Shown in pieces: positions 11,057 through 12,778 of a stretch of 64,000 bases of DNA. Where the stretch lies: the NCBI GenBank assembly GCA_001567355.1, contig JYNZ01000002.1, forward strand, positions 71,477-135,476. Direction: 5' to 3'. This DNA comes from a candidate division WS6 bacterium OLB20 (GTDB taxonomy: Bacteria; Patescibacteriota; Dojkabacteria; B142; OLB20). Made by a program: the position numbers and the translations under genes. How positions within the stretch are numbered: position 1 is the stretch's first letter; every line of letters starts with the position of its first letter. The notes beneath the pieces were generated by a model. The model was not told the DNA's origin and ran no database searches. It worked only from the letters and a program-made list of their open reading frames with translations.

Positions 11057-11276
11057 GAAAAGTATTTATCAATGGGGGCATTATAGCAGAGATCTGGCGC
11101 AATGGCGCAGTCCTGAATTTGACTGTCAGGTACCTGATCAAAGCGGGGTATGGAACGGGGGTAGACTTACTTCAATTGGTGGAACAACACGGGACATACG
11201 GGTCTGGAACCTTTACCCTAATTTCATCATATAAAAATGAGACAAATAAGACACCTAAAAAAAGGAGTATCAAAAG

Positions 11277-12284
11277 TTAAGTCTCATTTAATTTCAGAAA
11301 TTCAGCCAACCTCTCATTAGTATTGAAGACATTGGAAGGTTCAAGTTCAAGTATTTTACAGACTAGGCATTCTGTTGCCCTAATGAACAGTTCCATTTCC
11401 TTTAAATCTAGATCTTTCGGTCGTTTACCAAAATGCACTAATTTATTTCTTGCATTAACTATTCTTCTTATTTCAGCTCTTGAATCACTGTTTAGTACGA
11501 GTCCAAAATAGTTGACTAAAAAGTACGTTATTTTGTACTCACCGGAGAGATCTTTTTCAATCTGCTCATCAGTGAATTCAACACCTTTCTTATTTGCTGG
11601 CCTTGGATTCAATGCTCCAAAGAGATGCTCCCACATAGCCCAGCAAAGAATGAATGTTGGTTCAATATCCATTCTCTGCATAGCTTGCTTGAAGAGAAAT
11701 AAGAAATACCCGTCCCCATATTTAGTTTTCCACTCTGGGGTAGATATTAAATCTAATATTTGATTTATCCCCTTCCCAAAGCCGACATCTGGTTGGTTAA
11801 CAAAGTAGTATTCATCATTCTCTCTTTCTGATTCTGTAAGTGTCTCAAGCGTATCTTCGTTAAAGTATTCTGCTTCATATGCAATTGAACACCTCAGTAT
11901 CCCTCCGTAGTTATACATTCTATGATCGGAGATTAGTGTTGGAGTATCATTGTGTACAGATTCTTCTACAGCAAAGACATTTCTACCTGTAAATATTGAG
12001 AGTACTAAGCAGATATCATTTAGCCTGGTACTATTTGTATTCCCCCATGGTAAACTTGCTTCTTTGTTTATTTCTTGAACTGTACCTGTAGCTTGATGCT
12101 GTCCGGTTTGTATATTGGTTGAGAATTCAGAACCAGAGCTATTTACTAACCACATCATTTTAGAGTGTGCTTCTTCGTAGTTTTCTAGACGTACAAACTC
12201 GTAACCATCTAAAGTCAGTCTTTGAACGTATACAGGGAATTCCAAGTTATAAATTACCATTCTCATTGTTTGTTCACTAATCAT
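11277..12284 (-). CDS. hypothetical protein in a low-GC islet; possible HEPN-domain (Abi-like) protein
   Basis: 335 aa at roughly 33% GC, markedly lower than the flanks. C-terminal RRIVNARNKLVHFGK contains an Rx4H HEPN-like motif. Confidence 0.5.
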   Translation of the reverse strand: MISEQTMRMVIYNLEFPVYVQRLTLDGYEFVRLENYEEAHSKMMWLVNSSGSEFSTNIQTGQHQATGTVQEINKEASLPWGNTNSTRLNDICLVLSIFTGRNVFAVEESVHNDTPTLISDHRMYNYGGILRCSIAYEAEYFNEDTLETLTESERENDEYYFVNQPDVGFGKGINQILDLISTPEWKTKYGDGYFLFLFKQAMQRMDIEPTFILCWAMWEHLFGALNPRPANKKGVEFTDEQIEKDLSGEYKITYFLVNYFGLVLNSDSRAEIRRIVNARNKLVHFGKRPKDLDLKEMELFIRATECLVCKILELEPSNVFNTNERLAEFLKLNET

Positions 12285-12690
12285 TTAATTAATCCTTAAT
12301 ACTGCAGCAATACGCTTTGGTACTTAGTGCATATACTTCAATATGGTACCCCTGAGGAAAGGAAAAGCATACTAGGCGGTATCAAATCAAGGTTTGAATT
12401 AACGGACAGGAAACTAATCCTCAAATAGATTTGTCAAAATTCACTCTTCATAGCTTCTTATAACCAATTTTTCAAGACAGAAACAGGACTGCAACGAATA
12501 TTTAGGCACCAGAAACGCAACCCTAGCAACAAAAAAGCTTAGAACTACAGAGTTGTTTATTTCATCTGTTTTGAAGAAATTTGGAGAATTATGAGGTACT
12601 TTGCGACTTTGAAAAAATTTAGGGCTGATTTAGCAAGCAGTGTATGTGTTTCTAGCGTCGAGAAACGGGTCTTGTCAGAACATAACAAAA

Positions 12691-12778
12691 ATGGCGGAGA
12701 GGGCGGGATTCGAACCCGCGGTACCTTGCAGTACACAGTCTTTCCAGGACTGCCAATTAAACCACTCTTGCACCTCTC
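12691..12778 (-). tRNA. tRNA-Ser (anticodon GGA), 88 nt with a long variable arm
   Basis: Reverse complement reads GGAGAGGTGCAAGAGTGGTTTAATTGGCAGTCCTGGAAAGACTG...GGTTCGAATCCCGCCCTCTCCGCCA. It has a 7-bp acceptor stem, an anticodon stem CAGTC/GACTG with loop CTGGAAA, a GGTTCGAATCC T-arm and an encoded CCA. Confidence 0.85.

Follow-up and report, generated by a model that had tools for sequence, protein, structure and literature searches.

HEPN ribonucleases (RNases) form a major effector class of prokaryotic immunity, to which Cas13, Csm6, PrrC, ApeA, and HepT belong, and the domains with which they are fused determine how they sense infection. Features of the superfamily are a conserved R-x4-6-H motif, often R-N-x3-H, on a core helix of an all-alpha helical bundle and metal-independent RNase activity. 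ApeA was reportedly presented by Gao et al. in 2020 as an anti-phage system that consists of a single HEPN gene. The WS6/Dojkabacteria have reduced genomes, and their phage defenses are poorly known. Here, a 64-kb stretch of DNA from the candidate division WS6 bacterium OLB20 (the window) was analyzed, in which an AT-rich islet at the 3' end of a tRNA-Ser(GGA) gene carries one gene for a protein of 335 amino acids. In our judgment, the islet is probably the decayed remnant of a mobile element at the tRNA-Ser gene, with a single cargo gene encoding a latent two-domain ApeA-like HEPN RNase that serves in defense.

ApeA is a predominantly helical protein of ∼600 amino acids that assembles into doughnut-shaped decameric or dodecameric rings, cuts tRNA in the anticodon loop or phage RNA, and is activated via a ligand pocket located between the HEPN domain and the N-terminal domain (bioRxiv 10.64898/2026.01.26.701840; 10.64898/2026.03.20.713152). 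The exchange R521A in Ec1ApeA abolishes defense (bioRxiv 10.64898/2026.03.20.713152). HEPN genes of the ApeA type and the PrrC type have been reported inside restriction-modification (R-M) operons (PMC3710099). Genes nested in defense operons have been validated as defenses at a high rate, one HEPN protein included; HEC-08, a HEPN (DUF3644) protein, is nested in a larger defense operon, and mutation of its motif histidine abolishes defense (bioRxiv 10.1101/2024.01.29.577857).

The family of the window protein, represented here by an alignment of 35 members with 33–80% identity to it, shares several features with ApeA. Both are encoded by stand-alone single genes and carry a C-terminal domain of the HEPN_Apea branch, both are found in mobile or defense contexts, and the N-terminal region of both is without homology to known proteins. 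Moreover, the RN-x3-H motif and the downstream E-P-x-x-x-F-N motif align with Ec1ApeA. The two differ in length, ∼600 amino acids for ApeA versus 335 for the window protein, and ApeA has a helical N-terminal domain and a helical Mid domain that lack a counterpart in the latter. For direct comparison, the full Ec1ApeA sequence (601 amino acids) was recovered from an Escherichia coli chromosome via a partial insert sequence in the preprint supplement. BLASTP aligned residues 267–322 of the window protein alone with residues 509–572 of Ec1ApeA (pairwise E 0.05), placing RNKLVH over RNKITH, which contains the catalytic R521, and EPSNVFN over EPQDMFN. An hhalign comparison of the family with a 16-sequence alignment of the Ec1ApeA clade matched 25 columns around the motif (E 0.012, probability 3.5%). 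The PADLOC model for ApeA (PDLC02157) recognized 0 of the 35 family members at E ≤ 0.01, and the Ec1ApeA control scored 1389 bits. Membership in ApeA was rejected on the grounds of half the length, an alpha/beta N-terminal domain, the missing PADLOC match, and a similarity confined to the catalytic helix. Thus, the protein is ApeA-like in its catalytic helix but is not ApeA itself.

Ec1ApeA resides at positions 1197261–1199066 of E. coli CFSAN061763 (locus L017), beside a MobQ relaxase gene and a TraD gene in a mobile element. Of 5,426 complete E. coli genomes, only 36 carry it. Its RefSeq name, apeA, must derive from some other rule, as no NCBIfam hidden Markov model matches it.

Domains and conservation of the protein family

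A word-indexed search of 5.8 billion proteins yielded 54 homologs of about 305–330 amino acids. Their sources are patchy and comprise WS6, Desulfosporosinus, Caldilineaceae, WOR-3, and many metagenomes. When 1.84 billion cluster representatives were searched exhaustively with the family profile, 254 matched, and nearly all of the full-length matches measured 300–335 amino acids and spanned the entire profile. It follows from these counts and lengths that the family is rare and compact and has a fixed two-domain architecture. One homolog, P0058 (565 amino acids), is extended at its N terminus by 246 residues, among which LRNFIVH forms a second motif similar to RNxxxH; the extension has no Pfam match, and P0058 may combine two HEPN domains in one protein or reflect two genes merged during gene calling.

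At the level of Pfam, the C-terminal part of the window protein (residues ∼166–335 plus the stop codon; 11277–11789, minus strand) is a predicted HEPN domain of the ApeA-like branch. An earlier note on this DNA, made from its letters alone, had seen no housekeeping-type motif in the protein, which gave one relevant match, HEPN_Apea (PF18739; E 3.4e-4, 21.5 bits, residues 256–304). The same model matched 16 of the 35 aligned members (E ≤ 0.01; best E 1.2e-5), and the RiboL-PSP and Swt1 HEPN models matched a few. The close family representative P0055 reached 27.3 bits, above the 24.4-bit cut-off of HEPN_Apea, and P0033 is named "Apea-like HEPN domain-containing protein" in UniRef.

The predicted catalytic motif is RNKLVH (R279–H284; 11433–11450, minus strand). 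A lone Rx4H is estimated to occur ∼0.3 times by chance in a protein of 335 residues, and the motif gains its meaning only from being unchanged throughout the family. Arg279 and His284 are identical in all 35 aligned sequences, and Asn280 is conserved in at least 90%. The earlier note had called this motif HEPN-like and had the protein end with it; the first statement stood, the second did not, as the motif occupies residues 279–284 and lies ∼50 residues before the C terminus. A C-terminal L-x-P-S-N motif is conserved as well.

An AlphaFold2 model was calculated from the family alignment (predicted local distance difference test score (pLDDT) 90.6, predicted template modeling score 0.89). In this model, residues 1 to ∼165 are alpha/beta, residues 168–329 are all helical, and the catalytic motif is situated at the end of helix 266–285. 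The best, though weak, structural match of the model in the Protein Data Bank (PDB) was HepT (7bxo_F), a minimal HEPN fold, with Csm6 further down the Foldseek list; a structure search of BFVD gave weak matches, one of them an annotated HEPN protein. For HepT as for the window protein, an Rx4-6H active site shared by the two subunits of a dimer is presumed. The window protein differs from the HepT/MntA system in being twice the size of HepT, with an extra N-terminal domain of 165 residues, and in being encoded by a single-gene islet that lacks a partner of the MNT antitoxin type.

The N-terminal domain (residues 1 to ∼165; 11790–12284, minus strand), delimited from the alignments and the AlphaFold2 model, is a previously undescribed alpha/beta domain. 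Conserved positions within the family are YNLEFP, G61, H63, T66, F104, D120, and R122. It had no match in Pfam, NCBIfam, or PHROGs, and when modeled alone (pLDDT 83), it had no Foldseek match in the PDB (best E 1.7). Presumably, it is a sensor or regulatory domain. The whole protein likewise had no NCBIfam or PHROGs match, of which the NCBIfam result is uninformative because NCBIfam also misses the bona fide Ec1ApeA, and searches of PDB sequences, started from the protein or from the family profile, returned nothing relevant. The family joins an ApeA-type catalytic domain to an N-terminal domain that has neither a known sequence family nor a solved structure matched by Foldseek. If it is a defense, it would be a compact 320-residue system whose trigger is possibly new.

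The earlier note had proposed an abortive-infection protein of the AbiD/AbiF type (Abi_2, PF07751). The likeness to AbiD, AbiD1, and AbiF lies in a size of ∼330 amino acids, the status of single-gene candidates, and a HEPN-type Rx4-6H motif. Abi_2 did not match the window protein in Pfam at E ≤ 10 or any of the 35 members at E ≤ 0.01, and this assignment was rejected; the nearest type for the HEPN domain is that of ApeA. Apart from that correction to an ApeA-like HEPN family, the results support the earlier note's observation and, in essence, its interpretation.

A foreign islet at the tRNA-Ser(GGA) gene

The 3' end of a tRNA gene is a classical integration hotspot. The tRNA-Ser(GGA) gene (12692–12779, minus strand) was found by ARAGORN as the sole tRNA gene of the window and was confirmed by Rfam (tRNA match of 53 bits), in agreement with the earlier note, which had the segment abut its 3' end. 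This 3' end (12692) faces lower coordinates, where the content of guanine plus cytosine (GC) falls; the tRNA gene itself has a GC of 0.568. The interval 11057–12690, for which the note had given a drop to about one-third, indeed has 36.9% GC versus 49.4% in the window, which is 4.8 standard deviations under the mean and the minimum among all windows of the same size in the 64 kb. Because segment-wise GC shows a sharp block, the limits were refined to 11190–12691, i.e. 1,502 bp of uniform ∼0.36 GC with sharp edges. The foreign composition begins at 12691, the base adjoining the tRNA 3' end, and runs to ∼11190. To the left of the block (11057–11189), GC is 0.466, and other intergenic DNA at various positions of the window has 0.47–0.48.

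All features of the block are read on the minus strand. An AT-rich non-coding segment, termed S (12477–12691, GC 0.372), directly follows the tRNA 3' end. It is succeeded by 192 nt of spacer and 5' region of the HEPN gene (12285–12476, GC 0.344), the open reading frame (ORF) itself (11277–12284, GC 0.361), and an AT-rich 3' flank of 87 nt (11190–11276, GC 0.356), the distal end of which is the left edge of the block. According to the ORF list and Pfam, the HEPN gene is the only credible gene of the islet; the description of a single 335-residue gene without an integrase was thus borne out.

Codon composition gave the same picture. GC at third codon positions (GC3) of the HEPN ORF is 0.312 versus 0.494 ± 0.034 for the 28 other ORFs of the window (z = -5.4). 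In the hosts of the homologs (L001–L016), whose GC ranges from 32 to 57%, the family genes have 31–37% GC. The largest gap between gene and host, -19.6 points, was seen on a Caldilineaceae contig (57% GC), where the gene stands alone between an alcohol dehydrogenase gene and a urease operon. A gene GC that stays low in all hosts marks a gene that moves again and again. In Dojkabacteria cMAG.21, the only related genome found, the LCP gene is 68% and the next gene 26% identical to the window counterparts, and synteny stops at the islet edge; beyond this edge, the cMAG.21 locus holds neither tRNA-Ser nor the HEPN gene. By its GC, its GC3, the GC of its homologs, their patchy taxonomy, and its absence from cMAG.21, the islet is of foreign origin, as the earlier note had supposed. 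A horizontally acquired candidate immunity gene is thereby documented in a WS6/Dojkabacteria genome.

These data also bear on a housekeeping role, in which the protein would be an RNA-processing enzyme tied to the neighboring tRNA, or on a coincidental Rx4H motif in a protein that is not HEPN. The gene does adjoin a tRNA gene, the window protein scores under the Pfam threshold, and chance alone can readily produce a single Rx4H. However, a family of 254 clusters among 1.84 billion representatives is rare and taxonomically scattered, its gene is AT-rich in every host and missing from the related Dojkabacteria locus, the R, N, and H residues vary little or not at all, and members are matched by several HEPN models. 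We consider either version scarcely probable at all.

Another view is that the islet is the decaying relic of an old insertion, with an intact-looking ORF that has no current function. This would suit an element apparently deleted down to 1.5 kb and devoid of an integrase. It would also suit the promoter analysis: one promoter-like site was detected, in segment S (12615–12588), and this count is no higher than chance. On the other hand, the ORF is full length and retains all family-invariant residues, a good Shine-Dalgarno sequence (AAGGA, 12293–12297) precedes its ATG by 8 nt, and its product is 100% identical, with no frameshift, to a hypothetical protein deposited for candidate division WS6 bacterium OLB20 (this entry begins 6 codons later and has 329 amino acids). 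A functionless relic appears highly improbable.

Segment S and the joined ends of the islet

Segment S together with the last six bases of the tRNA gene, CCGCCA, was found to be 77% identical over 222 nt (blastn E 2e-41) to sequences in two homolog loci (window 12477–12697; L010 7080–7300; L012 4814–5034). In L010 and L012, the S homolog is located downstream of an 80%-identical HEPN gene and directly after a homologous 87-nt 3' flank and CCGCCA. The similarity of the 87-nt flanks is well above background (Smith-Waterman score 22 for the window versus the L010 flank; null 9.9 ± 1.6; reached by 0 of 500 shuffles). The spacer 12285–12476 is not homologous to the upstream region of L010, where homology begins inside the ORF. 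In the orientation of the gene, the order is tRNA, S, 192 nt, gene, and 3' flank in the window and gene, 3' flank, CCGCCA-S, and next gene in L010. Thus, gene and S are circularly permuted between the two genomes, and both ends of the window insert are contiguous in L010 and L012, beside a CCGCCA that resembles a tRNA 3' end. Joined ends are expected in L010 if an attP-like or tandem-element junction is present there and if the window contains the integrated copy, from which deletions later removed all but one gene. The insert at tRNA-Ser fits a decayed tRNA-targeting element, in which segment S may be the element arm next to attL.

At the left edge of the block (∼11177–11215), a stretch resembling a tRNA T arm (GGTTCCAGACCCG...) is present, with a similarity that was reached by 247–845 of 1000 shuffles, depending on the scoring, and is not significant; it may be a decayed attR, although statistical support is lacking. 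The L010 stretch including CCGCCA resembles the 3' half of tRNA-Ser marginally (3–9 of 1000 shuffles under two schemes, 106 of 1000 under a third) and, when CCGCCA is left out, at 61–69 of 1000 shuffles. The two tRNA-Met genes that flank the island in L003 were considered as att duplicates and rejected because they are different genes.

One possible reading of the permutation goes further. The 1.5-kb unit of S, gene, and 3' flank would be a minimal integrase-less cassette that is mobilized in trans and moves via a circular intermediate into tRNA-Ser 3' ends, and its protein would be an unrecognized "half-size" ApeA-like single-protein anti-phage RNase, with a new N-terminal fold that senses a different infection cue. 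We regard this combination as unlikely. If true, an integrase-less cassette would account for the arrival of these genes in the very small genomes of the candidate phyla radiation.

Segment S also has to be considered as the site of an antitoxin. The protein could serve as the toxin in a toxin-antitoxin or addiction module, which would stabilize the mobile element instead of acting against phage; an unrecognized small RNA or peptide antitoxin would then be encoded by spacer plus S, the 407 nt of AT-rich DNA upstream of the gene. Toxin-antitoxin pairs commonly include a HEPN toxin, as in HepT/MntA, and HepT was the top structural match; the 222-nt non-coding segment travels with the gene and has diverged to a like extent (77% versus 76% identity for the coding part); and the gene outlived the loss of the rest of the element. 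Against this, S is located downstream and not upstream of the gene in L010, no neighbor gene is conserved over the contexts, and no partner of the MNT type was seen. Segment S contains three blocks with GTTTCT. No tandem repeats of the kind that characterizes type III antitoxin RNAs were seen. Neither coding periodicity nor an unusual RNA fold was detected in S, and Rfam gave no support for a structured RNA; a protein-coding or structured-RNA element in S was therefore rejected. These properties make the toxin-antitoxin module distinctly unlikely. Exact-pattern scans with an invariant 19-mer of S gave 3 chance matches in metagenome contigs and 0 in viral contigs.

Neighborhoods of the homologs and the predicted mode of action

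The contexts of 12 homologs were examined (loci L001–L028, with the non-homolog loci L009, L017, and L024–L026 excluded), and about half of them proved to be defense or mobile-element neighborhoods. P0021 is inserted in a type I R-M operon, where gaps of 2–3 nt separate it from hsdM on one side and from hsdS on the other (L004), and AbiEii, an SLFN/AlbA_2 protein, and Mrr are encoded nearby. P0016 occurs in two contexts and adjoins a pair of C5-methylase and MutH-like genes in both; in one of them, it directly follows a type I R-M operon with Abi_C. P0027 lies between a large serine recombinase gene and a type III-like R-M pair. P0043 comes after tRNA-His, a PemK toxin gene, and an SLFN-like gene and before genes for a PLD-SNF2 helicase and an MmeI-type methylase. 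P0009 follows tRNA-Asp and an rve transposase gene, with AbiEii nearby, and P0010 stands beside an rve transposase fragment and a methyltransferase gene, with an AAA_14/DUF4143 ATPase gene downstream. P0003 (80% identity), the closest relative on long contigs, follows genes for an SF1 helicase, a helix-turn-helix protein, an SLFN-like protein, and a protein of 1203 amino acids; this neighborhood is wholly unlike that of the window. This association of the homologs with R-M, AbiE, SLFN-like, toxin-antitoxin, transposase, and recombinase genes suggests a defense or toxin role. No neighbor protein is common to the contexts, and the gene therefore stands alone as a single-gene system.

Some neighboring genes deserve mention in their own right. 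An SLFN/AlbA_2-domain gene is found within a few genes of the homolog in three unrelated contexts (L004 4834–5943, L008 5749–7239, L010 1487–2329). In L004, three more unannotated genes (232, 277, and 232 codons; 10169–12414) are placed between hsdS and hsdR and are further "embedded" candidates. In a subclade with 58–59% identity, two unannotated proteins flank the HEPN gene, with which their genes overlap or abut, and are shared by two contigs at 82 and 46% identity (L013 6284–6949 and 7929–8858; L015 7463–8023 and 9004–9399). They are absent from the window and the remaining contexts and may be encoded by accessory genes.

The position of P0021 invites comparison with PrrC and RloC. Common to these proteins and the window family are a HEPN-type catalytic domain and the character of a latent defense RNase (a predicted activity for the window protein), and P0021 is found within a type I R-M operon just as prrC is (PMC3710099). 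The "guilt by embedding" logic established for HEC-08 likewise fits the arrangement hsdM-HEPN-hsdS, but HEC-08 has no sequence relationship to the window family. In contrast to PrrC and RloC, the window protein has no N-terminal ABC-ATPase domain according to Pfam and NCBIfam, no Walker A motif was seen in its translation, and most family members, the window copy included, are without R-M linkage. One could suppose that the family acts as an R-M-linked guard like PrrC/RloC, which would be kept inactive by a type I R-M complex and released once restriction is disabled by a phage; in that case, the window copy would have lost its R-M partner and be an orphan, perhaps inactive or differently regulated. 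The embedded P0021, the location of P0016 directly downstream of a type I operon, and the reported ApeA- and PrrC-type genes in R-M operons speak in favor of this idea. However, the missing ABC-ATPase domain, the lack of adjacent type I R-M genes at most homologs, among them the 80%-identical relative and the window copy, and the absence of R-M genes among the window ORFs scanned render it very unlikely.

For the decayed remnant with a latent ApeA-like RNase, which we favor, the following course of events is conceivable. A mobile element would have inserted at the 3' end of tRNA-Ser(GGA) and decayed to the block 11190–12691, with one cargo gene kept. By analogy with characterized single-protein HEPN defenses, we infer that the cargo protein is a latent RNase. 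Two HEPN domains would pair in a dimer and build a composite active site, and the N-terminal domain would hold the enzyme off until an infection cue appears or a partner is lost; in the copies embedded in R-M operons, the trigger would be the loss of the R-M partner. The activated enzyme might then cut tRNA or other RNA, by which translation and phage growth would be halted.

A number of observations weigh against this interpretation. No integrase or recombinase gene was found in the islet, where the HEPN gene is the only supported ORF, and neither a repeat search nor Smith-Waterman comparison detected, at the far edge, a direct repeat of the tRNA end that had statistical support. A close relative with an empty tRNA-Ser site is missing, cMAG.21 being too divergent. 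The window protein, at 21.5 bits, is under the 24.4-bit cut-off of HEPN_Apea, and its best Foldseek match in the PDB, the HepT HEPN toxin 7bxo_F, has an E value of only 0.37. The PADLOC search produced no convincing defense-model match to the family; the window protein scored only 13.7 bits with "Cas13-ApeA". About 4–5 of the 12 contexts are housekeeping or uninformative (L005, L006, L007, L027/L028, L015-L016). In the literature searched, no experiment on any family member was found.

In its architecture, the protein is a variant within the well-known HEPN class and embodies no new principle; the N-terminal domain and the permuted segment S are the only puzzling elements. If it functions as it appears to, one more HEPN defense candidate is added.

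The remaining ORFs of the window that were scanned encode housekeeping proteins (LCP, Prs, ClpB, RNase J, ProRS, enolase) or have no Pfam match. The latter comprise 27499–31563 (1354 amino acids), 4379–5638 (419), 6573–8075 (500), 14220–14942 (240), and 10286–11056 (256). The last of these adjoins the islet, and its counterpart in the related Dojkabacteria genome is the gene with only 26% identity. On the strand opposite to the tRNA gene, Rfam reported "Plastid-psbl-rps4" at 12695–12738 (plus strand) with 34.5 bits against a threshold of 68, which is almost certainly an artefact of tRNA-like sequence.

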